DNA of 58,948 nucleotides, counting the filler. It is 5 parts of 5 records of this genome, joined end to end, with 100 filler letters (N's around TTAATTAATTAA, not from the genome) between each part and the next. Parts side by side here need not be neighbours in the genome. Positions count along the whole stretch, not along the records: positions 44,071 to 58,948 come from SRR2962707_763; 4 more parts are not named here. One strand, written 5' to 3'. A model generated the notes under the pieces. It did not search any database, had not been told where the DNA came from, and saw only the letters and a program-made list of their open reading frames with translations. A program made the position numbers and the translations under genes. This document shows, piece by piece, positions 2,457-58,948 of this stretch; the stretch's first letter is position 1; each line of letters opens with the position of its first letter.

Positions 2457-2581
2457 TTTGGGTGCCGCTTGAATTCTGCCGCTCAATTTAATAAAACCGC
2501 TGATGTTAGTCATTTATCTCGCTAAGGAATCTCATTAGAGAGGTGATGAACGGTTTGTTACTTTACTTAAAAGCTAAAAAG

Positions 2582-2785
2582 ATGGACTACTGGATCTACT
2601 TTGCATTGGTAGCAGCCGCCATTGCCATCTTTGCGATGGTGGATATTTCCATGAGACAGTTTCCTTTGAACCGAAAGCTGATATGGTTCCCAATTGTGGT
2701 TTTGATCCCATTTTTCGGACCATTGGCCTATTACATCAACAGGAAATCCCTCATTAGAAAAATTAAACAGGAAAAAGGAGCGTAA
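2582..2785 (+). CDS. Small membrane protein, PLDc_N-like
   Basis: Two hydrophobic segments with the KLIWFPIVVLIPFFGPLAYY motif. The 3' end overlaps the kinase gene convergently. Confidence 0.75.
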   Translation: MDYWIYFALVAAAIAIFAMVDISMRQFPLNRKLIWFPIVVLIPFFGPLAYYINRKSLIRKIKQEKGA

Positions 2786-4010
2786 ATGTGCTGCCCTCAT
2801 TTTGTTTGCTCTTGAAGGAAATTTCTCCTCCTAAAAGATCCATGTACTTTTTCACGATGGTTAGTCCAAGCCCCGTTCCCTGGATGTTGGTGACATTTCC
2901 GGCCCTGAAGAAACGCTGAAACATGTTTTTCTGCTCTTCTTTTGGAATGCCTATGCCATGATCGATGAAGTGCATCTCCAGGGCGGTTTTACCTTTCTTC
3001 ACTTCAATTTCAATCGGATCGCCAACATTGGAATATTTACTGGCATTAGAGATCAGGTTGATAATGATGTTTTTCAATATGTGTGGATCAGTGGTAATCA
3101 TGCTGCCATTACAATCATATTGGATAGACTGTCCTTCTTTTAGCAGGGGAGTAAGCTCTTCCACTACCTCTTCCAGCATCTCACCCAGATTGATCTCTTC
3201 ACTATCTACTTTTTGCGCACCGCTTTCCAGTTTTTCTATGGATAGAAAATCGTTTAGAATGGTCGTCAGGTTTTGAACGCTTTTCCTGATTCGTTCGACA
3301 TGTTTTTCTCGTGCTTCCTGTTGTTCAGCATCCGTGTACTTGGCTATCAAATTCGCTGAAGAAAGCACTGTTGTAAGGGGTGTTCGGAATTCATGACTGG
3401 CCATCGATACAAACCTGGATTTAAGTTCGTTCAGCTCTTTTTCTTTTTCCAGTGACTGAAGAATTTCCTGCTCGGCTTTTTTAAGATCGAGCAAACTTTC
3501 CTTTAAAGCTTCCTCAGCAATTTTCCTCTCCTGAATTTGGCTTTGAAGTCCCAGGTTCAAATGTTCTAGCTCACTCGTTCGTTCTTTTACCTTGAACTCC
3601 AGCCGCGAGGTATACTCTTCCAGCTTCTTTTCATTCTCCTTTCTTTGGGTAATGTCTGTTATGAAGGCAACTACCATCTTAGTCTTCTCATGTTCAAGAA
3701 AACTCAGGCTTATTTCAAGGGGGAAAGTAGAGCCATCTTTTTTCAAACCTACCAAATCCCTCCCCAAACCCATTTGCCTGGGAGTAGGGTGGTTGATATA
3801 ATTATTTCGATCTCCTACATGCTTCTTGCGGTAGCTTTCCGGGATCAACACTTCCACCTTCTGACCAGCCAATTCTTTTTCAGAATAGCCAAACATGTTT
3901 TCAGCTCGTGGATTCAACGCGGTAATGTCTCCCTTTGAGCTAAAAAAAATAATACCTTCCCCGGAGCTATAGAATAGCTTCGTAAGTAACTCCATTCCTT
4001 TATCAGACAT
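2763..4010 (-). CDS. PAS-domain sensor histidine kinase (FixL-like)
   Basis: PAS (NPRAENMFGYS...LIPESYRKKH...GLKKDGSTFPLEISL), H-box SHEFRTPL, N-box NLISNASKYS, G1 DHGIGI and G2 GTGLGL. Start is uncertain (4034 or 4010). Confidence 0.93.
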   Translation of the reverse strand: MSDKGMELLTKLFYSSGEGIIFFSSKGDITALNPRAENMFGYSEKELAGQKVEVLIPESYRKKHVGDRNNYINHPTPRQMGLGRDLVGLKKDGSTFPLEISLSFLEHEKTKMVVAFITDITQRKENEKKLEEYTSRLEFKVKERTSELEHLNLGLQSQIQERKIAEEALKESLLDLKKAEQEILQSLEKEKELNELKSRFVSMASHEFRTPLTTVLSSANLIAKYTDAEQQEAREKHVERIRKSVQNLTTILNDFLSIEKLESGAQKVDSEEINLGEMLEEVVEELTPLLKEGQSIQYDCNGSMITTDPHILKNIIINLISNASKYSNVGDPIEIEVKKGKTALEMHFIDHGIGIPKEEQKNMFQRFFRAGNVTNIQGTGLGLTIVKKYMDLLGGEISFKSKQNEGSTFTLLFPV

Positions 4011-14213: not shown

Positions 14214-14313
14214 NNNNNNNNNNNNNNNNNNNNNNNNNNNNNNNNNNNNNNNNNNNNTTAATTAATTAANNNNNNNNNNNNNNNNNNNNNNNNNNNNNNN
14301 NNNNNNNNNNNNN
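14214..14313. other. Artificial contig linker
   Basis: 100 nt: N-run, TTAATTAATTAA (stops in all frames), N-run. Confidence 0.98.
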
Positions 14314-20936: not shown

Positions 20937-21036
20937 NNNNNNNNNNNNNNNNNNNNNNNNNNNNNNNNNNNNNNNNNNNNTTAATTAATTAANNNNNNNN
21001 NNNNNNNNNNNNNNNNNNNNNNNNNNNNNNNNNNNN
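20937..21036. other. Artificial contig linker
   Basis: N-run + TTAATTAATTAA + N-run. Confidence 0.98.
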
Positions 21037-38311: not shown

Positions 38312-38411
38312 NNNNNNNNNNNNNNNNNNNNNNNNNNNNNNNNNNNNNNNNNNNNTTAATTAATTAANNNNNNNNNNNNNNNNNNNNNNNNNNNNNNNNN
38401 NNNNNNNNNNN
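38312..38411. other. Artificial contig linker
   Basis: N-run + TTAATTAATTAA + N-run. Confidence 0.98.
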
Positions 38412-43922: not shown

Positions 43923-43970
43923 TTTCCACTCCTGCGTAAGAAAAATACGAAAAAAAAAAAAAAAAAAAAA

Positions 43971-44070
43971 NNNNNNNNNNNNNNNNNNNNNNNNNNNNNN
44001 NNNNNNNNNNNNNNTTAATTAATTAANNNNNNNNNNNNNNNNNNNNNNNNNNNNNNNNNNNNNNNNNNNN
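43971..44070. other. Artificial contig linker
   Basis: N-run + TTAATTAATTAA + N-run. Confidence 0.98.
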
Positions 44071-44071
44071 T

Positions 44072-44209
44072 ATCGCTCCTGATCATGTGCATGAAGATGC
44101 TGACACAATAGAGCACGTCATCACTCCTGAACTGGAGCAACGATTAGAAAAATTACTTGACTATCCGGAAGCGGATCCGCATTCATCCATCATACCTTCA
44201 AGAAATTAA
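44072..44209 (+). CDS. C-terminal DtxR/MntR dimerisation-domain fragment (5'-truncated)
   Basis: IAPDHVHEDADTIEHVITPELEQRLEKLLDYPEADPHSSIIP matches the DtxR pattern 'VH.EA..LEH...L..P..DPHG..IP'. Confidence 0.8.
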   Translation: MAPDHVHEDADTIEHVITPELEQRLEKLLDYPEADPHSSIIPSRN

Positions 44210-44309
44210 CAATTAATAATGAGGAATGATCAATGTGTAATTAACTAATATCAAAGAGTAAATCATCAATTAACAACTATAAATAAACAATGAACAATGA
44301 TTAATTGAG
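44204..44309 (+). repeat. Degenerate heptamer tandem array (AATKARY) upstream of the four-helix-bundle gene
   Basis: AATTAAC AATTAAT AATGAGG AATGATC AATGTGT AATTAAC, then 15 nt, then AATCATC AATTAAC AACTATA AATAAAC AATGAAC AATGATT AATTGAG followed directly by ATG. Confidence 0.75.
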
Positions 44310-44660
44310 ATGACAAGACAACCCAACATCATACTAGACAAGTCATTTGAATTTGCTGTGACTATTATTGAGACGTACAAAACATTAACCAGTGAGTCAA
44401 GAGAATTTACTCTTTCTAAGCAGCTGCTAAGAAGTGGCACTTCCATTGGCGCAAATGCTGAAGAAGCAGTTGGAGGTTATACAAAAAAGGACTTTAAGTA
44501 CAAGATGGGAATCGCATACAAAGAAGCAAGAGAAACCATGTACTGGCTCAAGCTCTTAAAAGAAACTAAGTATATTCTTGCCAAAGATGCAGATCTATTG
44601 ATCGCTAACTGCGAGGAGTTATTAAGAATATTATGGAAAATCATCAAGTCATCGGAGTAA
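44310..44660 (+). CDS. Four helix bundle protein (23S rRNA IVS protein / TIGR02436 family)
   Basis: KSFEFAV...LSKQLLRSGTSIGANAEEA...DF.YK...AYKEARETMYWLKLL. Confidence 0.93.
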   Translation: MTRQPNIILDKSFEFAVTIIETYKTLTSESREFTLSKQLLRSGTSIGANAEEAVGGYTKKDFKYKMGIAYKEARETMYWLKLLKETKYILAKDADLLIANCEELLRILWKIIKSSE

Positions 44661-44711
44661 TTATTCATTGCTCATTTTTAACTATTAATTGCTCATTATT
44701 AATTATTCATT
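44656..44711 (-). repeat. Inverted copy of the heptamer array downstream of the four-helix-bundle gene
   Basis: The minus strand reads AATGAAT AATTAAT AATGAGC AATTAAT AGTTAAA AATGAGC AATGAAT AATTACT. Confidence 0.78.
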
Positions 44712-44716
44712 GAGAA

Positions 44717-45556
44717 ATGGATTCTTTTTGGATCATATTGACCGGATCATTAGTGGCAGTAAGCTGTGCACTGCTTGGCACCTTCCTTATCCTGAGAAAG
44801 ATGTCGATGGTGGGTGATGCTATTTCACATTCTGTTCTTCCGGGAATTGTAATCGCTTTCTTTATTGCCGGAAGCATGCAATCCATCTGGATGCTCGTGG
44901 GGGCAGGAATTATTGGAGTCCTCACAACCTTCCTCATTGAATTTTTTCATCAAAAGGGTCGGCTTCAAACAGACGCCTCAATTGGTGTGACCTTCACTTG
45001 GCTATTCGCCTTAGGAGTAATTCTGGTTACCTACTACGCAGGAAATGCACACATTGACCAGGATTGCATCCTTTATGGAGAAATAGCTTACGTACCGATT
45101 GATTTGATCTACGACAGTTCTGGTAATCCCATTGGTCCAAAAGCTGTGATCATCCTTGCTGTTGTACTTCTTCTCATAGTATCATTCATCATTGCCTTTT
45201 ACAAAGAACTCTTTATCACCACATTTGATGCTTCCTACGCAAAAGCCATTGGGATAGCAACCAACAAATGGCATTATGCCTTGATGGGATTGGTATCATT
45301 AACCACTGTCGCTTCATTTGAATCAGTCGGTGCAATACTGGTCGTTGCACTTTTGATTGCACCTGCAGCATCAGCTTACCTGATTACCCATCAGCTGAAA
45401 TTAATGCTTGTATTGAGTGCTTTATTCGGCATTTTAAGTTCAATCGGAGGATACTGGCTTTCTTATTTATTGGATGGCTCCATTGCTGGTGCCATGGTGA
45501 CCGTTTCAGGTTTTATCTTCGCCATCTGCTATCTGATTGTAAGAATAAGAAAATGA
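44717..45556 (+). CDS. Mn/Zn/Fe ABC transporter permease (ABC-3, MntD/TroD-like)
   Basis: LGTFLILRKMSMVGDAISHSVLPG and FESVGAILVVALLIAP. Confidence 0.93.
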   Translation: MDSFWIILTGSLVAVSCALLGTFLILRKMSMVGDAISHSVLPGIVIAFFIAGSMQSIWMLVGAGIIGVLTTFLIEFFHQKGRLQTDASIGVTFTWLFALGVILVTYYAGNAHIDQDCILYGEIAYVPIDLIYDSSGNPIGPKAVIILAVVLLLIVSFIIAFYKELFITTFDASYAKAIGIATNKWHYALMGLVSLTTVASFESVGAILVVALLIAPAASAYLITHQLKLMLVLSALFGILSSIGGYWLSYLLDGSIAGAMVTVSGFIFAICYLIVRIRK

Positions 45557-45924
45557 GAAAACTGCTTTTTACCTCTATTATAATTCTGCTTACCTCCTGC
45601 TACAACCAGCTGACTTTGGATGGTTTTGATAAGGAAAAATGGGCAAACCTAGCTGATTGCAGTGAATACCGTCTTGAGATTGCCGATTACCTCATTGAGA
45701 ATCAGGAAGTGCTGTTAGAGGGAACTCAAAATGAAGTGGAGAGCTTGCTAGGTCAGGCAGATGAGCATGAACTCTATCAACGGAACCAGAAGTTCTTTCA
45801 TTACCGCTTGACTCCTTCTGATGAATGCGGAAATTATGAAACACTCTCCTTCCTTTCTATTCGATTCAATGCAATCGGCAGGGCTAATTTGGTTCAGGTG
45901 ATGCTGCGAGAAAATGGAAAATGA
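45553..45924 (+). CDS. Hypothetical lipoprotein
   Basis: Lipobox LLTSC; GTQNEVESLLG is SmpA/BamE-like. Confidence 0.75.
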   Translation: MRKLLFTSIIILLTSCYNQLTLDGFDKEKWANLADCSEYRLEIADYLIENQEVLLEGTQNEVESLLGQADEHELYQRNQKFFHYRLTPSDECGNYETLSFLSIRFNAIGRANLVQVMLRENGK

Positions 45925-46144
45925 AAGACAAGATAGTACTGGACTTGAGTCAATTAATTCATCTTACAATCCTAAGAAAAGATCATTGTTATTCAGAATT
46001 ACCGCTTGGATAACACTGATAGTTATTCTTTTCATTCCACTTTCAGCAATCATATACGGACATTTTTACTACTTCTACTGCTATTGCTTTTGTGGGACTT
46101 ACTTTGATGAAATAGTCCGAGCTTTTGTTGAATTATTTCAGTAG
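45914..46144 (+). CDS. Small hypothetical membrane protein
   Basis: Overlaps the upstream stop. One TM helix followed by FYYFYCYCFCG. Confidence 0.5.
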   Translation: MENERQDSTGLESINSSYNPKKRSLLFRITAWITLIVILFIPLSAIIYGHFYYFYCYCFCGTYFDEIVRAFVELFQ

Positions 46145-46668
46145 CTAATCAACGAATGCACGTCTTCCGCATACGGCATGAGTGTTTCTTTTCCATGCAA
46201 AAACGATAGCTCAACGAGGAAAGAGAAACCTGCCACTACCCCACTGCATTTTCTGACCAACTCAGATGCAGCAATAGCAGTCCCACCTGTAGCTAATAGA
46301 TCATCATGCACCAAGACCCGCTGGCCTTCAAGAATTCCATCCTTGTGAATCTCTACTTCAGAAGAACCATACTCTAGTTGGTACTCGAAGGAATAGGTGT
46401 CTGCAGGTAGTTTTCCTTTCTTTCGAATTGGCACAAAAGGAATTTTCATTTTCTGTGCCAATGAATTACCCCAAATAAACCCCCTAGATTCAATACCAAC
46501 AACTACATCAATATGGTGAGGAGTCCAGTATTCGGCAAGTGCTGTTGTAATGTCAGCACTAAGAGCCACATCCTTCAAAAGTGGCGTGATGTCCTTGAAC
46601 ATAATTCCCGGCTTTGGGAAGTCAGGAACATCCCGAATGGATTGCTTGATACGTTCTTCCAGATTCAT
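46138..46668 (-). CDS. apt: Adenine phosphoribosyltransferase
   Basis: DFPKPGIMFKDITPLL, GIESRGF, RKKGKLP and HDDLLATGGT. Confidence 0.97.
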   Translation of the reverse strand: MNLEERIKQSIRDVPDFPKPGIMFKDITPLLKDVALSADITTALAEYWTPHHIDVVVGIESRGFIWGNSLAQKMKIPFVPIRKKGKLPADTYSFEYQLEYGSSEVEIHKDGILEGQRVLVHDDLLATGGTAIAASELVRKCSGVVAGFSFLVELSFLHGKETLMPYAEDVHSLISY

Positions 46669-46830
46669 TTGTCAGATCAGTGATTATAAAACAGGCACAG
46701 TATTTGGAACAGTTCTGCTAAAAAACTCAATCATTATGAAATGAGCATTAAAATTCATGAACGATTTTGTTAAACAGCGAATGAATTTTAATGTGAATTC
46801 CATGAGACAATAAATAAAAATTAAATACTC

Positions 46831-47217
46831 ATGAAAAGACTATACTTAATCCCTTTAATTCTTTTGATTGGACTGTCATCCGTCCAGGCGCAAAAGTTAT
46901 CTAAGATTCAGAAGATCCTGAATTCAAAGCAGAAGTGGACGGTCATCGATGTGAAGAGTAAACGTCCATATTTCGAGATTGGAGAGAATTTCACCATCCG
47001 CATAGATGGGAAATTTTATCATGACAGAAACAACTATGCTAAAATGGGTGGTGATTATACCCTCGACAAGAAGCAGTTGATTCTCACCTATGATTCCTTT
47101 ACTGAAGAAAGACGAAGGGTGCCTTACGTATATAAAATTCAGAAATGGGGTAAGAATGGCTTTAAACTCTCCTATCGAAATAAGTTTAATAAGAAAGAGA
47201 AAGTCTATCTTAAATAA
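46831..47217 (+). CDS. Secreted hypothetical protein (basic, beta-rich)
   Basis: Signal peptide ending SVQA-Q; followed by a terminator. Confidence 0.75.
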   Translation: MKRLYLIPLILLIGLSSVQAQKLSKIQKILNSKQKWTVIDVKSKRPYFEIGENFTIRIDGKFYHDRNNYAKMGGDYTLDKKQLILTYDSFTEERRRVPYVYKIQKWGKNGFKLSYRNKFNKKEKVYLK

Positions 47218-47218
47218 A

Positions 47219-47243
47219 GAAAGCCCGCATTTAGCGGGCTTTC
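47219..47243. terminator. Bidirectional intrinsic terminator
   Basis: GAAAGCCCGC-ATTTA-GCGGGCTTTC between convergent genes. Confidence 0.8.
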
Positions 47244-47248
47244 ATGTG

Positions 47249-48358
47249 TCAGTTCATTACATCATAAGCTCCTTTAAAAACCACCTCCTTGTTTTCCAGA
47301 TCACTAAAGTTCTTAATCTCAGTCCACTCACCCGAACGAATACCTGTTTGCACTTCAATCTTTTCAAACAAATCTTGATCTGTATTCACTTTATACAGAA
47401 TGAATTGAGCTCCATCCATGTCCACTATAGCTTCTGAAGGTAAAGCGTATGCATTGGTTGTCCCTACTTCAATACTGGCCTCAACGTACATCCCAACAAC
47501 CAACCCTTTGCTATCTTCTGGTAAATGTCCATGAACGTTTACTGAGCGTTCATTTTGATCGATAGCTTTCTCTATCATATGTACTTCACCTTCCAAAACT
47601 CGATCATCATTATCCACTTTGAATGAGATCTTCTGTCCTTCTTTCAATTTGGACACATCCTTTTCATACACTTTTAATTCAAGATGCATGTGCTCGGTAT
47701 TTATAATCTGAAGTGCCACATCCTGCGGTGACAGGTATTTCCCCTTGTTAATGGAAAGATCGCTAACAAAACCTGCTATAGGTGCACCCACTGGAACAGA
47801 ACTAACGATGGTACCTTTTTCGAGGGTATTGATATTTACCTTGATCAGTTCTAATTGCTCTCTCAGACTTTCCAGTTTCGCCTTCATCACCTGATAGTCA
47901 GATTCAGCTTGCTTGAATTTTTTCTCCGATGAAATAGACTCGCTTACCAGTTGCTTTTGCCGCTCATAGTCACTTTCAAGAAAACTCAATTTGCTTTTTG
48001 TTTCTAGATATGATTCCTGCATGGTGATGAACTCTGGATTCTGAATGGTAAAAAGTAGCTCTCCTTTTCTTACTTGTTGACCAGGTAAAAGATCCAGCTT
48101 TCTCACAAACCCTCCATGGAAGACATTGATAGATGCCCGATGAGTTGGTGGTACATCGATGATCCCTCTGGCTGTAACATATTGTGCAAGATCCACTTTC
48201 TTCAATGGGCCTGTTTCAATTCCAGATTTGCTTACCTGCTCTTTAGTCAGGCTAATCTGATTTGTCATCACTTCAGGTTCTTCAGCTTCGTTAGATGGAG
48301 AACTGCAAGAAACCATTACCAAGATAGAAAACAGAAATATGATTGATTTATAATTCAT
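47249..48358 (-). CDS. RND efflux periplasmic adaptor (CzcB-like) lipoprotein
   Basis: Lipobox VSC, then GQQVRKGELL, APIAGFV, HLELKVYEKD and GMYVEA. Confidence 0.92.
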   Translation of the reverse strand: MNYKSIIFLFSILVMVSCSSPSNEAEEPEVMTNQISLTKEQVSKSGIETGPLKKVDLAQYVTARGIIDVPPTHRASINVFHGGFVRKLDLLPGQQVRKGELLFTIQNPEFITMQESYLETKSKLSFLESDYERQKQLVSESISSEKKFKQAESDYQVMKAKLESLREQLELIKVNINTLEKGTIVSSVPVGAPIAGFVSDLSINKGKYLSPQDVALQIINTEHMHLELKVYEKDVSKLKEGQKISFKVDNDDRVLEGEVHMIEKAIDQNERSVNVHGHLPEDSKGLVVGMYVEASIEVGTTNAYALPSEAIVDMDGAQFILYKVNTDQDLFEKIEVQTGIRSGEWTEIKNFSDLENKEVVFKGAYDVMN

Positions 48359-48367
48359 GATGATATT

Positions 48368-51300
48368 TTAATACGTTAAATAATTGATCTCCAGCACTGT
48401 TTGATTGTACTTCAAAACAGCTGACAGATACTCGATTTGAATGTTGGCAGCTCGATCCAATAGCTGCACGTATTGAAGAAAATCGATTTCTCCATTTTGG
48501 AATGATCGATTAGCGGCAAGCATCATTTGATCGCTCAGTGCCTTTCCCGATTCCTCATAGGATGATATAGCACTCTCGTGAATACGTAGCTCCTGCTGTA
48601 ACTGCAAGAGTCTGCCTTGTAACTGGGATTGATAATTCTCTGCTTCAAGTCTTGCCTGATCTACTGCAATACGGGAGGCATTGATTCTGGATTTCTCCCC
48701 GGAATAAAGCAATGGAATACTCACCCCTACCTGAAATCCACGATAGGTAGGTGCATTTTGCGATCCATCATTTCCCTGAAAATATTCAAACTGCAAACCG
48801 GGTAACAATTGATTTTTCTTCATTGCCAAATCAGAAGCAACCAGATCAACCGATTCTTGTGCATACAGTAATCCGGGAATACTTGAAGTATCAGGAAGTG
48901 CTACAGGCAATTTGAAAATAGAATCCTGATCAATCTTCAATGCTTCATCCGTTTGAAGTAACCGATAGAGACCCGTGTAGGCTCTATCTAATTCATTTTC
49001 TGTCTGCGACTTCTTCCTTGCAGTCTCAGTGGCTAAGCTCCTGGCTGTGAGCTGCTCCAGGTAATCGGTCTCCCCCAATTCAAAACGTCGCTTGGCTGCC
49101 TCATTGAAACGAGTATAGACACTATCGAGATAGGCGTACCAACTCAATCGTTGATTGATATATACAATCTCCTGGTAGGCAATCGATACATTCTTCGTTA
49201 GCTGCCTTAAAACCTCATCATGTCTGTATTGTGACAACTGCACTTCATTCTGAAGCATCTGCTTCTTCTTTCCATAGACCGTTGGAAAATCAAAATTCTG
49301 CTGGATACCCCATAGATTCAACGGTTGATTATTGGGAGTCAGGTTGTTCTGATCCTTGTTGTAATAAACCGTTGTTTTCTCGAAGGAAAACGCACTGCTT
49401 ATCAATGTATTCGAACGCTCCACTTCCAGAGCTGATGCCTGGAATGCCTTGTTGTTTTGTTTGGCAATTTCAATGGCTTCATCCAAACCAATGGTCTTCT
49501 CTTGTGCATTCAACACTGCCGGAAGCACCAGAATTGCCAGGAATACAGCCAGCTTATTGGAGGCTTTGATTTTAAAAGATCCACGATCAAACAGGCAGTA
49601 TAGTACCGGAAGCACAACAAGTGTCAACAAGGTTGCCGTAATCAATCCACCCACAACTACCGTGGCTAAAGGGCGCTGAACCTCTGCTCCTGCCGAAGTA
49701 GAAACCGCCATCGGAAGGAAGCCAAGTGCAGCTGCAGAAGCAGTCAATAGAACTGGCCGTAATCGCTGAGTGGCTCCTTTGATCACTCGTTCTCTTACAT
49801 CGGATATCCCTTTGGCTTTGAGCTCCTTAAAATGTTCGATCAGTACAATCCCATTCAATACCGCAATCCCAAACAAAGCAATAAAACCGACCCCCGCTGA
49901 AATACTAAATGGCATTCCACGAATCCATAGCAAAAGCAATCCTCCAACTGCCGATAGTGGAATGGCGCTGTAAATCATCAACGCATCCTTTACAGATTTG
50001 AAGGCAAAATGCAACAAAATGAAAATCAGGATTAAAGCAACCGGCACAGCAACCATCAATCTCCGTTTGGCACTTCTCAGATTTTCGAATTGTCCGCCAT
50101 ACGTGACATAGTAGCCCGTTGGAAGCTGAATATGTTGCTCAATCAGAGAGCTTACATCTTCAACTACTGACTCCAGATCACGATTCCGAACGTTGATGCT
50201 TACAACTATTCTTCTCCTTGTATCATCCCGCGAAATCTTAGCCGGGCCATGCGAATACGTCACATTCGCTAAAGCTGTCAGTGGAACTTTCCCGCCTTTT
50301 GGCAGTGGGACAAAGATCTGATCGAGATTTTCAATTCCCTTTCGGAAATCCTCATTGAAACGAACTGACAAGTCGAATCGCTTTTCTCCTTCAAATACGC
50401 TTCCAGCAACCTCTCCTGCAAAACTCAGCGACACCAACTTATTTACATCGGCTATATTCAACCCGTATCTGGCAATCTTGTCACGATCATATTCCACCTT
50501 CATCTGAGGCAATCCTACCACCTTCTCCACCGTAATATCTGCTGCTCCTTCAACATTGGCAATAAGTGACTCAACCTCAAGCGCTTTCTCATATAGCAGA
50601 TCAAGATCCTCACCAAATATTTTGATAGCAAGATCTGAGCGTACTCCCGTTATCAATTCGTTGAACCGCATTTCAATCGGCTGGGTAAATTCAAAATCAA
50701 CACCTGGCAATTCCACTACAAGTGCATCTTTAATCTTATCGGCAAGTTCATCCTTGCTACTCGCTGATTCCCACTCACTTTTATCCTTCAAAGTGAAGAT
50801 GACATCCGTCTCCTCCATGGACATTGGATCTGTTGGAACTTCTGCTGCTCCAATTCTGGTGACCACTTGTTTCACCTCAGGAAATCGCTTGATGATTTGC
50901 TCGATTTCCGTAGTGATTTCAACCGTCTTGGAAAGCGAAGTGCCTGTTTTCAAAACCGGTTGAATTACAAAGTCTCCTTCATCGAGAGTTGGCACAAATT
51001 CGCCTCCCATTCTTGAAAACAAGAAAACCGTCCCTGCGAGCAATAAAGTCGCAATGGTCAACACAGCTTTCTTGTGACTGAGGGCCCAGGTCAAGACAGG
51101 CTCATACAGCTTTCCAATTCCGGCGATGAGTTTGGCAGATATACCCCCTTCTTTTTTGGATGGACGAATAAAAAGGCTTGAAATAACAGGTACGTACGTG
51201 AAGCCAAAGATCATTGCCCCCAACAGCGCAAAACAGAAAGTAAGCGCCATGGGTATGAACATCTTACCCTCCACATTCGTCAATGAGAGAATCGGAATGA

Positions 51301-52690
51301 ATACGATAATAATAATCAACTGACCAAAGATTGCAGATCGCATCATTTTGGTCGTACTCTCAAAGGTGATTTCATCTACCCTTTCTTTCCGATCAGCAGC
51401 ATCTAATCCTAGCAGCTCCTTCTGATTGCTGGTGATCTTGAATGCAATAAATTCCACGATAATCACTGCTCCGTCTATGATGATCCCAAAGTCAATTGCT
51501 CCCAAACTCATCAGGTTGGCGTCTATTCCAAAGATGTACATGAGTGAGATGGCAAAGAGTAGCGCAAGCGGAATGATTGAAGCTACCACCAAGCCTGACC
51601 TCATATTACCCAAAAGCAATACAACCACAAATACCACGATCAAACAGCCCAAAACCAGATTTTCAGTAATGGTAAAAGTGGTTTTACCTATCAACTCGCT
51701 TCTTTCCAAAAATGGATTGATGGTAATACCTGGAGGAAGTGTTGGTTGAATTTCAGCAACACGTTCTTTTACCGCGTCAATTACAGCTTTCGAATTGGCG
51801 TCTTTCAACATCATCACCTGCCCAAGTACTTTCTCGCCTTCTCCATTTCCTGTTACTGCTCCAAAGCGAGTGGCATAACCATAACCAACCTCTGCCACAT
51901 CTTTGATGAAGACGGGATTACCATTCCTGGTCTCAACTACAATGTTTTCAATATCTTCAAAGGAAGTGACCAGACCTTCGCCACGAATAAAATAACTCTG
52001 ATTCGTTCGTTCGATGTATCCTCCACCGGCTACACTGTTGTTCATCTCCAATGCATCAAGTACCTGAAATGGTGTGATATTCATCGCATTAAGATGTTCA
52101 GGATTGATTGATACCTCATAGCGTTTAAGAAACCCTCCCCAGGTATTCACCTCCACTACTCCTGGTATTCCTGAAAGTTGACGTTTCACAATCCAGTCCT
52201 GAATGGTTCTCAAGTCCATGGCAGAATACCGATCCTTATAAGCTGGGTCCACATCCAAAACGTACTGATAAATCTCTCCCAGACCAGTAGTTATTGGCCC
52301 CATTTCAGGGCTCCCAAAACCAGCAGGAATTTTATCGGACGCTGTTTTGATCTTTTCGGCAATCAATTGCCTGGGCAGATACGTCCCAATATCATCATCA
52401 AAGACGATTGTCACAACCGACAGACCAAATTTGGAAATGGATCTTATCTCCTTGACACCCGGCAGGTTGGCCATCTCCAATTCAATGGGATAAGTGATGA
52501 ACTGCTCAATATCCTGCGTGGACAAGTTTCGCGAGGTAGTAATTACCTGCACCTGATTATTCGTGATATCAGGAACTGCCCCAATTGGGATTTGAGTGAG
52601 TGAATAGATGCCAAAGGCAAATACGCTGATGGTAAATAATATGATGATCAGCTTATTCTTCAAGCTGAATCGAACAAGATTTTCTAACAT
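48368..52690 (-). CDS. CusA/CzcA heavy-metal RND transporter fused to a C-terminal TolC-like outer-membrane factor
   Basis: AVPDITNNQVQV, MSLGAIDFGIIIDG, RLRPVLLTA and EVQRPLATVV, plus about 400 aa of OEP-like tail. Confidence 0.95.
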   Translation of the reverse strand: MLENLVRFSLKNKLIIILFTISVFAFGIYSLTQIPIGAVPDITNNQVQVITTSRNLSTQDIEQFITYPIELEMANLPGVKEIRSISKFGLSVVTIVFDDDIGTYLPRQLIAEKIKTASDKIPAGFGSPEMGPITTGLGEIYQYVLDVDPAYKDRYSAMDLRTIQDWIVKRQLSGIPGVVEVNTWGGFLKRYEVSINPEHLNAMNITPFQVLDALEMNNSVAGGGYIERTNQSYFIRGEGLVTSFEDIENIVVETRNGNPVFIKDVAEVGYGYATRFGAVTGNGEGEKVLGQVMMLKDANSKAVIDAVKERVAEIQPTLPPGITINPFLERSELIGKTTFTITENLVLGCLIVVFVVVLLLGNMRSGLVVASIIPLALLFAISLMYIFGIDANLMSLGAIDFGIIIDGAVIIVEFIAFKITSNQKELLGLDAADRKERVDEITFESTTKMMRSAIFGQLIIIIVFIPILSLTNVEGKMFIPMALTFCFALLGAMIFGFTYVPVISSLFIRPSKKEGGISAKLIAGIGKLYEPVLTWALSHKKAVLTIATLLLAGTVFLFSRMGGEFVPTLDEGDFVIQPVLKTGTSLSKTVEITTEIEQIIKRFPEVKQVVTRIGAAEVPTDPMSMEETDVIFTLKDKSEWESASSKDELADKIKDALVVELPGVDFEFTQPIEMRFNELITGVRSDLAIKIFGEDLDLLYEKALEVESLIANVEGAADITVEKVVGLPQMKVEYDRDKIARYGLNIADVNKLVSLSFAGEVAGSVFEGEKRFDLSVRFNEDFRKGIENLDQIFVPLPKGGKVPLTALANVTYSHGPAKISRDDTRRRIVVSINVRNRDLESVVEDVSSLIEQHIQLPTGYYVTYGGQFENLRSAKRRLMVAVPVALILIFILLHFAFKSVKDALMIYSAIPLSAVGGLLLLWIRGMPFSISAGVGFIALFGIAVLNGIVLIEHFKELKAKGISDVRERVIKGATQRLRPVLLTASAAALGFLPMAVSTSAGAEVQRPLATVVVGGLITATLLTLVVLPVLYCLFDRGSFKIKASNKLAVFLAILVLPAVLNAQEKTIGLDEAIEIAKQNNKAFQASALEVERSNTLISSAFSFEKTTVYYNKDQNNLTPNNQPLNLWGIQQNFDFPTVYGKKKQMLQNEVQLSQYRHDEVLRQLTKNVSIAYQEIVYINQRLSWYAYLDSVYTRFNEAAKRRFELGETDYLEQLTARSLATETARKKSQTENELDRAYTGLYRLLQTDEALKIDQDSIFKLPVALPDTSSIPGLLYAQESVDLVASDLAMKKNQLLPGLQFEYFQGNDGSQNAPTYRGFQVGVSIPLLYSGEKSRINASRIAVDQARLEAENYQSQLQGRLLQLQQELRIHESAISSYEESGKALSDQMMLAANRSFQNGEIDFLQYVQLLDRAANIQIEYLSAVLKYNQTVLEINYLTY

Positions 52691-52741
52691 GAAATTAAGT
52701 TTTAGAACAACAATTGGATAGGATGTGAAATCCTTTCGGGT

Positions 52742-53110
52742 TTAAGCCAATTGTGGAGGGCCTCTAAAACTTATTTGATAGGAAAAGTGCTGGGGAACAA
52801 TTACAGATTCGTATTCAACCCAAACTGGTTGATCATCCTCTGCATTGATATGTTGAAACTCAAAACTTGCTAATTCTGAAGCTATGAATACAAATGTGGC
52901 AGAAGAAGCTTTCTCAAACTCTTCCAGATGATTCTCACCTGGATTAGTATGAAAAGCAAGTAAAATGTAATCGAGTAGTGAATCAGCTTGTTCATGCTCG
53001 ATGACATGTCGATCGTCAGGAATCTGATCATGATGCTGATGAGGCAATAGGGTATGCAGCATCAGAATACTGATGGCTAGAAACACTGCTATTTTGCCTA
53101 TTCTCTTCAT
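52742..53110 (-). CDS. His-rich exported leader protein ending in RGPP (DUF2946-like)
   Basis: Hydrophobic N-terminus, then LPHQHHD...HVIEHE...FHTNPGENHLE and a C-terminal SFRGPPQLA. Lies directly upstream of czcA. Confidence 0.8.
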   Translation of the reverse strand: MKRIGKIAVFLAISILMLHTLLPHQHHDQIPDDRHVIEHEQADSLLDYILLAFHTNPGENHLEEFEKASSATFVFIASELASFEFQHINAEDDQPVWVEYESVIVPQHFSYQISFRGPPQLA

Positions 53111-53211
53111 TGCTTATGCAATTTACGGATATCTCTATGGAATGTTGATTAGCTGAGCTAATTGAGAATTATTCTACATAACCCCTACTTATAATTTAAT
53201 TCCATTTGAGT

Positions 53212-53236
53212 TTAGTTGCATAAACAACTAATTTTG
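53212..53236 (+). promoter_or_regulatory. Palindromic operator overlapping the -7 promoter element
   Basis: TTAGTTG-CATAAA-CAACTAA (53212-53231) overlaps TAATTTTG (53229-53236). Confidence 0.6.
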
Positions 53237-53257
53237 CATTCTTAAAAAATATAGTGC

Positions 53258-54493
53258 ATGAATTGGGAATCATACAGTCATTCGAAGCTCAAGAAAATCG
53301 TATTTGATGCGTTGGAGAAGAACTTGGATTACAGACATAAACCTGTTCTTGGATTACCTGCCTCGTATCTTGATACAGAGGTTTTTTATCAAGATGCCCC
53401 ATTTCTGAAGGACGCTCCTTTCCTTTCTTCAATGATTGCTAACCCAAATCATATTGGCTGTCATACCCTGAATGAATCCGAAACAGCTTTTGAAGGAACG
53501 CAGAAAATTGAAGCTGAATTGATTCAATTATGCGCTAAAGAAATATTTGGAGGTGAAGATCCAAGTTACGACGGATATGTGGCTTCTGGTGGTACGGAGG
53601 CTAACATTCAGGCCATTTGGGTATTGAAGCGGTATTACGAAAAGGAATTCAATGCAAGGCCCGATGAAATCACGTTGGTGTTTTCAGAGGATGCCCACTA
53701 CTCTATGCCAAAGGCAGCAAGCCTACTGAGTCTGGACACCACCATTCTTTCTGTTGATTTCGAAACACGAGCTTACAGCGAATCTGCTCCAGAACAACTC
53801 CAAGCAGCAAAGGAAGCCGGTAAGAAATACTTCATCATAGTGCTTAACATGGGAACGACCATGTTTGGATCGATCGATGATATCGATACGATTACCAATT
53901 GGATGGATTCTTTAGATGTTGATTATAAAATTCATGTAGATGGCGCATTCGGAGGATTCATCTATCCTTTCTCAGATCCGAACTCCAAACTCACCTTCAA
54001 TCATCCAAAGATCAATTCTTTCACTCTGGATGGCCATAAAATGCTGCAATCCCCTTATGGGACAGGGATATATCTTACTCGAAAAGGGTTCATGGATTAT
54101 GCATTGACAGAAGAAGCCAATTACGTCAAAGGGAAAGATTATACATTAATTGGGAGTCGTTCCGGTGCGAATGCAATAGCTGTTTGGATGATTATTCGAA
54201 CGTATGGCTCTGACGGTTGGCAAATGAAAATCAAAAACCTGTTGAAAAAAACAGATCGTCTGTGTGATCAATTGGATGAGAGAGGCATTGCGTATTACCG
54301 AAATCCATTAATGAACATTGTTACCATTAAAGCCGAATTCATTAGTGAGCAAACCTCGCATGACTATCTGTTAGTACCGGATAAACATGATGGCCAACCA
54401 GATTGGTACAAAATAGTAGTAATGGATCATGTGACTCAAGGGTTCCTGGATCGTTTCTTAATGGAGCTTCGCTCTGAAGTTAAAATCGATTGA
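53258..54493 (+). CDS. Group II PLP-dependent amino-acid decarboxylase (MfnA/PanP-like)
   Basis: SGGTEANIQA, AHYS, GTTMFGSIDD, HVDGAFGG, DGHKM (PLP Lys) and GSRSGA. Confidence 0.88.
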   Translation: MNWESYSHSKLKKIVFDALEKNLDYRHKPVLGLPASYLDTEVFYQDAPFLKDAPFLSSMIANPNHIGCHTLNESETAFEGTQKIEAELIQLCAKEIFGGEDPSYDGYVASGGTEANIQAIWVLKRYYEKEFNARPDEITLVFSEDAHYSMPKAASLLSLDTTILSVDFETRAYSESAPEQLQAAKEAGKKYFIIVLNMGTTMFGSIDDIDTITNWMDSLDVDYKIHVDGAFGGFIYPFSDPNSKLTFNHPKINSFTLDGHKMLQSPYGTGIYLTRKGFMDYALTEEANYVKGKDYTLIGSRSGANAIAVWMIIRTYGSDGWQMKIKNLLKKTDRLCDQLDERGIAYYRNPLMNIVTIKAEFISEQTSHDYLLVPDKHDGQPDWYKIVVMDHVTQGFLDRFLMELRSEVKID

Positions 54494-54503
54494 GCCCTTC
54501 AGC

Positions 54504-56240
54504 CTAGTTATCTGAGAGTACCAGTTGGTCAGTGGCTTTCTTCATAGATTCGGAAATTTCAGCAAAGTGACTAATCCTACTATTGAAAGAATCCATACCG
54601 CTGGATAACTCTGTGGCAGAAGCTGAAACCTGCTCAGTTCCCGCAGCAGTTTCCTCTGCTACAACAACTATATTCTCTGTGATTGATACCACCTCATTGA
54701 TTTTAGTAATCTGCTCCTGGGCGGCATCCAAAATACTCTTGGAAGACTCCAATGTTTTAATGGTTACCTCATGTATCTCCTTAAAAGAGGCCGATGCTTC
54801 CATGGACTTCTCCTTACCTGCACCAATCTTGCTCAACATCTCTTTCATTGATTGTCCGGCCGTGTGCGTGTCATTTTGAACATCTTTCACGAGTTTCTCA
54901 ATCTCTGAAGCCGATTTTTTGGAATCTTCAGCAAGTTTCCGAATCTCCTCTGCAACCACAGCGAATCCCCTCCCAGCATCTCCAGCTTGAGCTGCTTCAA
55001 TAGCTGCATTCAGGGCAAGTAAGTTAGTTTGTGATGAGATTTCTGAAATCACACTAAGAACAGTGTTTATTTCAATAGATCTATTCATAAGGACTTCCAT
55101 CGATGCATTTGTCTCCTCAGCATAGTTGGAAATATCAGACATGCTTCCCTGAACTTCATCAGAAATTGACATTCCCTTCTCACTTCTTTCCGCTCCTAGA
55201 GAAGCTGAGCGAGTAATTTCTTCTGCTCTTTTTCCCATCTCGCTAGATGAACTGCGAATGCCTTCTATCAAGGAAGATGATTCATCTACCTTTTGCATTT
55301 GTGTTTGCGCTCCCCTACTCATTTCAGTAATGGAGGTAGCAATCTCACTGGTATTGACACTTATTTCCTGACTAGTAATGGACATTTCTACTGTTGCAGC
55401 ATCTATCACAACCGTGTTTTGAACAACGCCTTTTAGAATTTGATCAAGATTAATGAGCGCATTATTCAGATTTTGCTTCAAGGTATCGATATCTCCCACA
55501 GCCTCTAGTTCAAATCTCTTTGTTAAATCTCCAACTGAAAGGCTTTCCAGAATTTGATTGATTTGGACAAGGGGTGTGACAAATGAACCTAATAGCTCAT
55601 TAACTGAATGGCCTAAATCATGCCATGCTCCATGCTTATTAGAAATATCTATGCTGGCTTTCAGATTTCCATTTAAGCTTGCTTCTTCAACTACTCTCTT
55701 GGTGTCATCAATACCTTCACTTAGATGCTTCTTCATCATCGTAAGTGCATTTCCTAACTCATCCTTTTCACTCCTGATTTTATACTCTGCACTCAAATCA
55801 CCCTCACCCACACTTGAGGCAAAAACAGAAATATCTTTAAGCATCTGTACGAAGCGATTGAAAGAATGATAGGTATCTGAAATCTCGTTATTCTTCAGCA
55901 GGTATTTTGCATTGATCGTAATAGCAAAGTCCCCTTGATTCATCTTATCCAAATGAATAATCATACCCCTGATTGGATTTCTAACTTCATTGATGAGGTA
56001 GTAAAACATCAATATAATAACAGACATACCTAATGGGACAGCCCAAAAAAGATTGATTAATCCATAGGCTGCAGTGGTGTAACCGAGAAACGCGATTATG
56101 AGACAAACGACTACAATGAGGTGAGAGAGTTTGAGCAAGAAAGACTTTCTAAAGAGGAAATAGCTTATTCCAATTAGTAATGCAGCGGTAAGTATTACAG
56201 CGATGCTAAAAATGGTAAAATCACTCATATTGACTTTCAA
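54504..56240 (-). CDS. Methyl-accepting chemotaxis-like protein (TM-HAMP-MCP)
   Basis: [35 protein letters not shown], with N-terminal TM helices and HAMP-like repeats. The start may be the ATG at 56228. Confidence 0.92.
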
Positions 56241-56398
56241 TTGACGGTTTAGGCAGTGGTGGACTAACTAATAGTCCTCAACGATGAGTGATTATTTCCT
56301 AGCTACTACAAAGTAATACAATTAATAAATTAAGATATGATTCGATTAGTTCAACCAAGTCCATTGGTCGACTAATTGAGGTCTATAGCACATGATAT

Positions 56399-57637
56399 TT
56401 ATTCGAATCTTAAAGAATCGATTGGGTCTAGCTTAGAGGCTTTGTAGGCTGGAATGTATCCTGAGATTAGTCCTACCACCACACCAATTAAAACAGCTAT
56501 TAACATCCATAGCCAAGGCACTACAAATCCGGAATTAAATATGACTGTGGCAGTCAAATTACCAATGGCCATACCGAAGATGATACCTCCGATTCCGCCC
56601 ATCTGACAGATAACAATGGCTTCAATCAGGAATTGTTGACGAATCTTCAAAGGAGTGGCGCCTAATGCTTTTCGAACACCAATTTCCCTTGTGCGCTCAG
56701 TTACAGAAACCATCATGATGTTCATCAAACCAATTGAGGCGCCTATTAGTGTAACAAAACCAATGGCAAATCCACCAGCTCGAAGATAGCCAGTGATCTC
56801 ACCCATTCTTTCTGCCAAAGATTTACTGGCCGTCAAGGCGAATGAATCTTCTTCTCCCGGTCGATCCTGGCGAATTGCGCGCATTAGTCCACGAGCAATG
56901 CCCATTGCATTGTCCATTTGTGTCGGATCAGGAACTGCTACAGCAATTTCATAACCGAAATTTCTCTCAGGAGCAATGATCCTTGCTGTTTGCATTGGTA
57001 TAATGATGGTACGATCAATATTCGACGTTCCGCTTGCTCCTCCTTGTTCAGCAATTGTTCCAACAATTCTAAACTTAGAACCCATCAGGCTGATTTTCTT
57101 TCCTATCGGGCTTTCTCCATCGGTGAATAATTCATCAATAACGTCACTACCAACCAAAGCGACATAACTGCCATTCAAACTTTCATTCGCTGAAAATGGA
57201 CGACCTTCCGCCACATCATAACCATCCACGGTCAAATAATTTTCGTCACCACCACGAACTATCTGATTAGGATTGGTCACTTTCGATCCGTACTTCACTT
57301 CTGCCTGACCTGTAATTACTGTATAAATAGATACAGTTCCGGGTCCTTCATATTTTTCCTTGAATTGTAAAAGCTGGCTATAGGTAACTTTTGGATATGT
57401 CTTTTCTTTTTTTCCGCTTGATGAGCCTCTGCTTCTACGCCTATCTTCAATATCGAATGTATTGGCACCAAGACTTGAGAAAGAGCTATTGATTGAGTTT
57501 TGGATTCCATCAATGGCTGTCAGAATTCCAACCAATGAGGTTATTCCGATGGAAATAATTGCAGCGGTCAGGAATGTCCTTAATTTATTGGCTTTGATCG
57601 ATTTGATACCTTCTTTGACGTTCTCGCGGATGTTCAT
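56399..57637 (-). CDS. MacB/FtsX-family ABC transporter permease
   Basis: [34 protein letters not shown] and [11 protein letters not shown]. Confidence 0.95.
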
Positions 57638-57697
57638 AGGTTAGCTTTAGAAAAACACTCGGTTTTGATTAACGTTGTATAGACAAAAGTGATGCAT

Positions 57698-58948
57698 ATG
57701 CGGGGAATATTGTTACTAATTCTTTTAAATATATCTGTTTCGGTAAAGGCGGCTTACATCCTGATACCCATGGATGAGACTCAATCCAATCATTTAAAGG
57801 CATACGGAATAGCCTATTGGATTTTGACAAAAGATGTGAGTATCGACTGGATGCTGAATTATAAAGGTGGCAGCTTCATGGTAAAACACCTGCAGGTTTT
57901 TGAAAATGAATGCATCATTCGAGGTGTCTCCTATCAAGTCATTTCTGATGCTGAAGCAAATGATATTCTAAATGTTATTGCGAGTCCCTCTTCAAATATG
58001 GACGTGATGAAGCTCGAGAAATTTCCAAAAATAGCTGTTTATTCTCCAAAGAGTAAACAACCCTGGGATGATGCAGTAACCTTAGTCTTAACTTATGCAG
58101 AGATACCCTATGATGTCATTTTTGATGATGAAATCATGGGTGATGAACTTCCAAAGTACGACTGGCTCCATTTGCATCATGAGGATTTCACAGGACAATA
58201 CGGAAAGTTTTATCGCGCCTACCATCATTTCCCATGGTACCAGCAGCAGCAAAGGGATTATGAGGAATCAGCCCGTAAGCATGGATTTAATAAAGTCTCT
58301 CTTTTGAAACTTGCGACTGTTAACAAAATCAAATCGTATGTAGCAAGCGGAGGATTTTTGTTTGCTATGTGCTCAGCAACTGACACCTATGATATTGCAT
58401 TGGCAGCAGAAGGTCTTGATATTGTAGAAAGCATTTACGATGGAGATCCGGCAGATCCAAGGGCTCAGTCCAAGCTGGATTTTTCCAAGACCATGGCGTT
58501 TGAAAATTTCACTATCGAGCGAGATCCCATGCGTTATGAGTATTCCAACATCGACAATCAAGCAAATGAACGTGGGTTAGTAGAAAACAATGATTACTTC
58601 ACATTATTTGAATTTTCTGCTAAATGGGATCCTATCCCCACCATGCTGACCCAAAACCATCAGCAGATCATTCATGGATTCATGGGACAAACTACTGGTT
58701 TTAAAAAAGGTTTGGTGAAAGGTGATGTAATCGTTATGGGGCAAACACCCAGCATACAAGAGGCTAAATACATCCATGGTGTATTGGGTCGTGGGTTCTG
58801 GACATTCTATGGTGGACATGATCCCGAGGACTACCAGCATTTTGTAAATGAACCCCCAACTGATCTCAACCTTCACCCTAATTCTCCAGGATACCGGTTG
58901 ATTCTGAACAACATCCTATTTCCGGCAGCTAAGAAGAAAAAGCAGAAG
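57698..58948 (+). CDS. Conserved secreted Bacteroidota protein (often labelled 'asparagine synthetase B'), 3'-truncated at window end
   Basis: Not in the ORF track because it has no stop. MRGILLLILL...AYILIPMDETQSNHLKAYGIAYW...PWDDAV...WLHLHHEDFTGQYGKF...FAMCSATD...YGGHDPED...LILNNILFPAAKKKKQK. Confidence 0.85.
   Translation, partial: MRGILLLILLNISVSVKAAYILIPMDETQSNHLKAYGIAYWILTKDVSIDWMLNYKGGSFMVKHLQVFENECIIRGVSYQVISDAEANDILNVIASPSSNMDVMKLEKFPKIAVYSPKSKQPWDDAVTLVLTYAEIPYDVIFDDEIMGDELPKYDWLHLHHEDFTGQYGKFYRAYHHFPWYQQQQRDYEESARKHGFNKVSLLKLATVNKIKSYVASGGFLFAMCSATDTYDIALAAEGLDIVESIYDGDPADPRAQSKLDFSKTMAFENFTIERDPMRYEYSNIDNQANERGLVENNDYFTLFEFSAKWDPIPTMLTQNHQQIIHGFMGQTTGFKKGLVKGDVIVMGQTPSIQEAKYIHGVLGRGFWTFYGGHDPEDYQHFVNEPPTDLNLHPNSPGYRLILNNILFPAAKKKKQK

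Follow-up and report, generated by a model that had tools for sequence, protein, structure and literature searches.

The closest described counterparts of the element reported here are intervening sequences (IVSs) with an open reading frame (ORF) inside 23S rRNA, known from helix 45 of Coxiella burnetii and from Leptospira (PMC4990558; all statements on this paper refer to its available text). Such an IVS lies within helix 25 or 45, measures about 0.43-0.5 kb, has no transposase and has long been suspected to be selfish or mobile. The ORF belongs to the S23p/PF05635 family and is placed between terminal inverted repeats, with tandem heptamers of variable number upstream. In Coxiella the element is closed by a near-perfect 28-bp terminal stem, GACAGAT tandem heptamers precede the S23p ORF in a number that varies between strains, and the first of these repeats is where RNase III cuts; this ORF is in decay and probably not translated (PMC4990558). 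Here we examined a cassette with this architecture from a window of 58,948 nucleotides, i.e. five contigs joined end to end, filler included. The cassette is located on the last contig (44071-58948, 14.9 kb), begins 133 nt past the contig start and consists of a gene for a four-helix-bundle (4HB) protein between two inverted arrays of heptamers. Whereas the IVSs interrupt an rRNA helix, the cassette sits between two genes of an operon, a permease with a DtxR-type domain and an ABC-3 permease. As far as sequence and published text can be compared, the architecture was already known from the one rRNA case and the cassette matches it except for the host location. It is a real feature and one member of a widespread design, yet it fails the location in rRNA that defines an IVS. 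Our best reading, with a probability of roughly 0.6, is that of a compact, promoterless, selfish PF05635 cassette akin to the ORF-bearing 23S rRNA IVSs, in which the arms would serve as sequence-specific sites. That the locus is an inserted cassette at all is the part of this reading which we consider very probable.

Two further differences to the rRNA elements are evident. The arms of the cassette are degenerate motif arrays, whereas Coxiella has the near-perfect 28-bp stem, and the ORF of the cassette is intact and under purifying selection, whereas that of Coxiella decays. In the full-text literature, subscription journals and supplements aside, we came across no account of PF05635 cassettes with repeat arms other than in rRNA. 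Genes for 23S_rRNA_IVP proteins wedged in cas operons, e.g. between cmr3 and cmr2, were reported in a 2013 survey; its available text took this position as a functional link to CRISPR-Cas and described neither repeat arms nor an insertion (PMC3936711). The cassette differs from insertion sequences, transposons and miniature inverted-repeat transposable elements in that it has no transposase of its own and is not present in many near-identical copies, and its arrays are not dispersed. REP/RAYT and IS200/IS605 elements share with it one small gene, inverted short repeats or hairpins and the lack of classical long terminal repeats. They use an HUH tyrosine transposase and have repeats which are dispersed genome-wide; the cassette, in contrast, encodes a four-helix-bundle protein and has a motif that is private to each cassette. 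Dispersed repeats of the REP type were considered for the AATKA arrays described below and rejected: a three-unit AATKA pattern gave one to three hits per Ekhidna genome, and the four hits outside the cassette were solitary and formed no arrays.

The 4HB gene (44310-44660, + strand, 116 aa) is the sole ORF of the cassette, and no further PF05635-family gene was found in the window. Its product matched PF05635 (E 3.5e-26; 91.9 bits, cut-off 33.8), TIGR02436 (E 6.6e-31; 106.8 bits, cut-off 24) and the PDB structure 2RLD (E 2.6e-27). The family of 23S rRNA IVS and four-helix-bundle proteins had thus been named correctly in the initial annotation, which was made from the letters of the window. The family motif RxxxSxxxNxxE is intact in the translation (RSGTSIGANAEE); the longer form GxxRxxxSxxxNxxE is given as characteristic of 23S_rRNA_IVP proteins in the available text of PMC3936711. 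2RLD contains five chains, and a pentamer was reported for the family member Xcc0516 (PMC4990558). The protein is under purifying selection: among the 4HB genes of the window and of two relatives at the same site, L016 and L064, nonsynonymous differences per site (pN) were 0.15-0.21 compared to synonymous differences (pS) of 0.84-0.86. Pfam searches of 15 ORFs on 44071-58948 (all six of at least 120 aa on this contig plus nine others; six of the 15 had no Pfam match) identified no transposase, integrase, recombinase or reverse transcriptase. No Rfam family, rRNA included, matched the cassette region at E values up to 1, and no terminator-like site was found at the locus. A sigma-70 promoter scan was run; the sigma-70 model is uninformative for Bacteroidota.

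The arms have a regular construction. The 5' arm extends from the stop codon of the upstream gene to the ATG of the 4HB gene and has 13 units, as was annotated initially. It is not one continuous array, though, because it is made of two blocks 1 nt out of phase. Block 1 (44204-44245, + strand) comprises six in-phase heptamers with an AATKA core (AATTAAC, AATTAAT, AATGAGG, AATGATC, AATGTGT, AATTAAC), and the upstream stop TAA (44207-44209) falls within the first of them. It is followed by an out-of-phase stretch of 15 nt (44246-44260, + strand) and by block 2 (44261-44309, + strand), seven in-phase heptamers of which the last abuts the start codon at 44310. Over the 13 units the consensus is A13 A13 T12 K A11 plus two variable positions, i.e. 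AATKA with a period of 7. The 3' arm (44658-44713, + strand) is built of eight reverse-complement heptamers with a TMATT core. It begins at the TAA of the 4HB gene and, in the AAT register, ends 5 nt short of the permease ATG at 44717. This confirmed the eight inverted units that had been described between the 4HB stop and the permease, and likewise the match of the outer ends, which agree as an inverted pair in 21 of 24 positions (88%). Lag-7 identity was 0.60 in the 5' arm and 0.62 in the 3' arm, lag-21 identity 0.61 and 0.79, respectively; Tandem Repeats Finder reported periods of 7, 14 and 21. A stop codon (TAA, TGA or TAG) is present in many of the arm units, in the window (44204-44309) as well as in the arms of the cassettes L105, L110, L113 and L117. 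Because the unit period is 7 or 8 and no multiple of 3, these stops occur in all three frames. This could allow a cassette to end the upstream gene regardless of the frame of insertion.

Relatives of the host operon contain the junction in several states. The upstream host gene is present in the window with its last 45 codons and stop (44072-44209, + strand; truncated by the contig start), which encode a DtxR-type metal-binding domain; in relatives the complete gene codes for 429 aa, an ABC-3 permease fused to the C-terminal DtxR-type domain. The downstream gene (44717-45556, + strand) encodes an ABC-3 metal transporter permease of 279 aa with 83-90% identity to Ekhidna permeases. Contigs were searched with this permease; 60 of the 80 loci obtained have both the DtxR-domain tail and the permease. 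At 40 of the 60 the junction is tight (at most 10 nt from stop to start), and in 24 of these 40 stop and start overlap (TAATG, TGATG or a TGA stop overlapping the start, e.g. TGACA). The junction sequence of the empty site is AAAATAATG, and the upstream protein typically ends with IPK-stop, as at 12 empty Ekhidna junctions. An intact 4HB gene occupies the same position in four of the 60 loci, its protein being 71% (L016), 73% (L064), 57% (L053) and 51% (L062) identical to that of the window. Gene remnants are left at two (L044, L048). At nine, arrays with a period of 7 persist without a gene (L021, L027, L030, L036, L037, L070, L056, L058 and L047); lag-7 identity was 0.57-1.0 in eight of the nine as measured, with L036 weak and L047 judged by eye. 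The remaining five have unclassified spacers of 33-81 nt.

The tail of the upstream protein carries a trace of the event. In the window it reads IPSRN-stop compared to IPK-stop at empty sites. An altered tail, IP(S)RN(N)-stop, is found in six Ekhidna alleles, i.e. the filled loci of the window, L016 and L064, the arms-only loci L021 and L027, and the tight junction L023, which retains IPRNI-stop; the tails of the arms-only loci L030 and L070 read IPLK-stop and IPGK-stop. Therefore, the insert overwrites the last host codons and supplies the stop. These comparisons show that the junction was ancestrally tight and that the cassette was inserted into it; gene remnants, arms-only loci and a footprint form a decay series. 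The initial proposal of a self-contained insertion in an operon, for which empty-site orthologs were to be sought, was thereby borne out by empty, filled, decayed and arms-only states alike.

In two runs of a single study, metagenome contigs with about 89% identity to the window extend across this junction, likewise in the filled state. Their 3' arm is 7 nt shorter and their 5' arm 14 nt longer than in the window; the arrays vary in length by whole units, as they do between orthologous cassettes. Both runs carry the label algae metagenome. An unrelated metagenome contig (runs X1 and X2, records 2 and 6) matches 40 nt of the 3' arm (44666-44705) and continues as an array of the ATTGTTCATT type. 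This contig probably belongs to a different organism and carries a cassette of its own with a similar motif.

Some relatives are unusual. In L053 (2130-3001) the 5' array is giant, with about 290 nt of GGAATGR/TTCAATGA heptamers, and the 3' end of its 4HB gene together with the 3' arm is tandemly duplicated. L056 (2726-3001) and L058 (2804-3001), which are Fulvivirgaceae-like, carry inverted arrays of the GCTATGG type without a 4HB gene (self-complementarity z about 11.6), a motif that differs from other arrays at this junction. In L037 (2170-2280) the arrays are non-complementary, four GAATTRA units followed by eight CTAACAA units with a perfect period of 7. In L047 from Cyclobacteriaceae an IS3-type element (1590-3001; HTH_Tnp_1 plus rve) lies between five GAATTAA units and an inverted array. 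This 1410-nt insert was considered as a mobiliser of the cassette and rejected, because it is an IS3-type element lodged in an arms-only remnant.

The packaging is not confined to this operon. Of 151 Bacteroidota genomes sampled, 119 contained PF05635, each with 1-19 matches; by genus the count was 70 of 89. Two sets of family members were compared with control ORFs, of which 79 from the same genus served for the first set. The first set of 26 loci, with flanks set by the boundaries of the Pfam matches, comprised ten from genome G001, 13 from three Ekhidna genomes, two further mnt-site loci and the window. G001 is a different Bacteroidota organism, without a DNA match to the locus and without a permease ortholog, and supplies an independent set of ten genes. 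The second set contained the 30 best-scoring Pfam loci from 30 other genomes. Arm complementarity exceeded the 95th percentile of the controls in 19/26 and 27/30 loci, periodicity in 21/26 and 25/30. The test of flanks across Bacteroidota for periodicity and inversion, as initially proposed, was thus positive. For the first set against controls the Mann-Whitney test gave p of about 1e-12 for both measures; since related loci are not independent, this value overstates the evidence. The arm period is mostly 7, sometimes 8, and the unit sequence varies between cassettes. The neighbouring ORFs have the orientation of the 4HB gene: upstream in 22/22 cases and downstream in 23/23 among those 23 loci of the first set which form complete paralog sets, and in 26/28 and 28/30, respectively, in the second set. 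Most of the sampled Bacteroidota relatives of the 4HB gene share this packaging.

What are the arms for? The flank complementarity of the window scored 17.5 (z 8.6), which none of 100 shuffles reached; the 95th percentile of the 79 controls was 9.5. As RNA, the two arms form a duplex with a calculated energy of -27.6 kcal/mol compared to -14.6 +/- 3.3 in dinucleotide shuffles (z -3.9; none of 300 as stable). The outer arms are paired in the minimum free energy and centroid structures, 2 nt past the upstream stop and 5 nt before the permease ATG. The transcript thus can form the duplex that had been postulated. The fold of the whole 541-nt region, on the other hand, was no better than that of shuffles (z -1.03; 17 of 100 as stable). 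The RNA folding proposed initially accordingly gave a clear result for the arms and none for the region. Further, the order of the units is irrelevant for pairing: when the eight 3' units were permuted, complementarity was equal or better in 1668 of 2000 arrangements. Without a register, the match of 76-88%, including the 21/24 of the outer ends, follows from the motif shared by both arms. Hence of the register-slippable duplex the duplex stood, whereas its complementarity is a consequence of the shared motif. Mismatches between the arms of 52 cassettes comprised 50 G-U, 55 A-C and 208 others, i.e. there was no excess of G-U over A-C of the kind that selection on pairing of the sense RNA would leave.

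The motif itself is conserved. In the five cassettes that occupy this site, the 5' arms all contain the AATK core 8.7-11.8 times per 100 nt, compared to 0-4 times in nine paralogs from the same genus, and the core was kept despite saturated synonymous sites (pS 0.84-0.86). Missing register, missing G-U excess and conserved core together indicated sequence-specific recognition. Of the two functions first considered for the repeats, binding or processing, these three arm tests favour the binding option. As the motif is conserved, lineage-specific and private to the cassette, a sequence-specific reader is probably inherited with the cassette. The only candidate for this reader that the sequence offers is the cassette's own protein. 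It would also be the most economical one, because motifs differ between cassettes within one genome. We regard the assignment as tentative, with the odds somewhat against it.

A purely RNA-level IVS was the first interpretation of the locus. Here an RNase III stem would excise the ORF from the mRNA or would join the stop and start codons of the host, and the element would spread as RNA. The stability of the arm duplex, the pairing of the outer arms close to stop and start, and the strict sense orientation of the cassettes agree with this, and for the Coxiella IVS excision by RNase III, which cuts at the first heptamer, is proven (PMC4990558). The evidence on the arms nevertheless speaks for something else: complementarity is registerless and stems from the shared core, the core is conserved rather than drifting by compensatory change, a G-U excess is missing and the whole-region fold is not significant. 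The arrays are also unequal, 13 versus 8 units in the window and roughly 290 nt versus a few units in L053. We therefore consider this interpretation unlikely. From the mobile-RNA stem initially proposed, a duplex that can be formed remains; register, G-U excess and drift of the core, which would mark a stem selected for pairing, do not support it.

A second possibility joins protein and RNA. In the available text of a preprint on the cryo-EM structure of a diversity-generating retroelement (DGR; 10.1101/2023.10.23.563531) the pentameric Avd barrel is likened to 'S23 ribosomal proteins', a single imperfect stem-loop is held by all five Avd protomers, its flipped-out bases lodged in the crevices between them, and a long-range duplex brackets the template in the DGR RNA. 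By analogy, an Avd-like ring which reads a duplex with mismatches every 7 nt is plausible. The protein of the cassette matches PF05635 and TIGR02436, and its tie to Avd is that of the family. Unlike the Avd/DGR system, there is no reverse transcriptase among the 15 scanned ORFs of the contig; template/variable repeats were not searched for. Taken further, the ring protein might read the 7-nt motif of its own cassette as an imperfect RNA duplex in which mismatched or flipped-out bases recur every 7 nt, and the resulting ribonucleoprotein (RNP) might mark the excised RNA for copying by a host enzyme, e.g. a reverse transcriptase, and for re-insertion at tight stop/start junctions within operons that are being transcribed. 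This would be an attractive scheme, yet we rate it as quite unlikely.

How does the cassette reach new sites? Two paralogs from one Ekhidna genome, L098 and L101, are about 80% identical over arms and gene, and their flanks are unrelated. At orthologous junctions between fadB-like and thiolase genes of G001 and of Ekhidna, L009 (genome G001), L092 (G004) and L095 (G002) belong to different subfamilies with different motifs, in two Bacteroidota classes. As L098 and L101 share only arms and gene, gene plus arms is what was copied; together with the different subfamilies at orthologous junctions, this is evidence that the cassette moves as a unit. The occupancy of the fadB-like/thiolase junctions suggests that certain tight junctions between genes are preferred. 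Movement is probably rare, since there are only few family genes per Ekhidna genome (3, 4 and 6 in three genomes; the closest pair about 80% identical) and since in the protein tree cassettes that share a site group together.

Does a DNA element of the transposon type account for this? Its inverted arrays would be multi-site terminal repeats, as in Tn7 or Mu; either the 4HB protein or a recombinase encoded elsewhere would bind them as double-stranded or hairpin DNA, with movement by cut-and-paste. Inverted motif arrays, a mismatch pattern that is symmetric with respect to the strand, the joint copying of arms and gene, and the persistence of arms-only remnants fit well. So does a possible direct repeat of 5-7 nt at the borders. 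In the window AGAAAT is found at the left (44201-44206, + strand) and at the right (44713-44718, + strand, overlapping the permease ATG), both ambiguous; L016 has GAAATAA on both sides compared to AAAATAA at empty sites, and L064 and L021 are ambiguous. The initial statement that neither transposase nor target duplication is evident thus held for the transposase, in the cassette and in the 15 ORFs of the contig, and has to be softened for the duplication. Against a DNA element, transposase, integrase and recombinase are missing in the cassette as in the scanned ORFs. Each cassette has its own motif, therefore one shared enzyme is unlikely. Copies are also scarce and old, with 3-6 in each Ekhidna genome and about 80% identity in the closest pair, and we know of no nuclease or recombinase activity of the four-helix-bundle fold. 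On balance this alternative appears improbable.

Less probable still is a domesticated, immobile part of the operon, in which the arrays would tune mRNA stability or translational coupling and the 4HB protein would serve the host. Orthologous cassettes do occur at the same junctions across genera (mnt, scoA/B-like, fadB-like/thiolase), purifying selection on the protein is strong, and the stop and start codons of the neighbours are kept intact. Yet the host operons are functionally unrelated, most relatives have no cassette here (40/60 tight junctions), the decay series from gene remnants to arms-only loci and footprint runs counter to a host function, and an unrelated junction was colonised within one genome. 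Chance, i.e. AT-rich intergenic DNA with low-complexity heptamers such as AATTAAT beside an ordinary small gene, is rejected by the controls to the point of being negligible, because none of the 100 and 300 shuffles reached the complementarity and the duplex energy, the controls stayed at 9.5 versus 17.5, the same layout recurs with other motifs in 19/26 and 27/30 family members, and empty sites have no spacer at all.

We thus prefer the selfish PF05635 cassette with sequence-specific arms, for which the following course of events is proposed. The cassette was inserted at the overlapping stop/start junction (AAAATAATG) of two metal-ABC-permease genes and would be expressed by read-through from the host operon. 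Its motif would be read sequence-specifically, most economically by the oligomeric protein it encodes. In the transcript the arrays may pair in many registers, giving an imperfect duplex which loops out the ORF. Such a duplex is a plausible RNase III substrate, as in the ORF-bearing 23S rRNA IVSs; for processing by RNase III in vivo, drawn from this analogy, the chances are about even. New sites would be gained rarely by a trans-acting route, and the filled or empty allele would spread from strain to strain by homologous recombination.

Several observations weigh against this reading or restrict it. The insignificant fold of the 541-nt region and the absent G-U excess, which leaves selection on sense-RNA pairing unsupported, affect the looped-out duplex here as well. 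Common descent of the entire cassette may be all that links the motif to the protein clade. In a DNA tree of the permease the states are scattered, and the empty L015 and the filled L016 are sisters with 100% support. Their identity is 95-100% farther out and drops to 76-84% next to the insert, over about 450 nt on its left side and 250 nt on its right. This mosaic means that homologous recombination alone can explain the scatter of filled and empty sites; among close relatives it is no proof of active transposition. In a tree of the 400 nt of upstream flank no grouping of loci by state was found. The border repeat of 5-7 nt is similar to an arm unit and hence not a clear target duplication. 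No clear arms were seen in 7/26 and 3/30 loci, and the second set, composed of best-scoring loci, is no random draw. Expression, processing, binding and movement of the cassette are predictions from sequence.

No function is known for the very large PF05635/TIGR02436 family, of which a sampled Bacteroidota genome can contain up to 19 copies. Insertable cassettes with private repeat arms would explain why its genes are found inside unrelated operons, cas operons included, and would connect them with ORF-bearing rRNA intervening sequences, a puzzle for 30 years. In annotation it would be wrong to take such cassettes for functional partners of their host operons. Testable hypotheses follow, i.e. 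that the protein binds its own motif and that RNase III cuts the arms. Should the reading as a self-recognising RNP be true, PF05635 cassettes would constitute a new class of protein/RNA-guided mobile elements with the rRNA IVS as a special case.

The other parts of the window are of different origin. The five contigs are joined by linkers of the form N44-TTAATTAATTAA-N44 at 14214-14313, 20937-21036, 38312-38411 and 43971-44070; the last is the artificial joint immediately before the contig with the cassette, and the contig on its left side is unrelated. GC content is about 30-35% at 14-38 kb versus 47-51% at 38.4-44 kb. As the contigs are unlike in composition, the 'assembly' combines organisms. 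The source of the last contig is, to judge from its ABC-3 permease, an Ekhidna-like bacterium (Cytophagales). The GC-richer contig at 38412-43970, with about 24 A at its end (43947-43970) and numerous ORFs that overlap on both strands, looks different from the bacterial contigs and is possibly a eukaryotic transcript or gene. On the contig of the cassette, 48368-52690 (- strand) encodes a single-frame fusion protein of 1440 aa that combines an efflux pump of the AcrB/CzcA-type resistance-nodulation-division family (PF00873) with an outer-membrane efflux protein domain (PF02321), adjoined by a gene for a HlyD/CusB-type adaptor.

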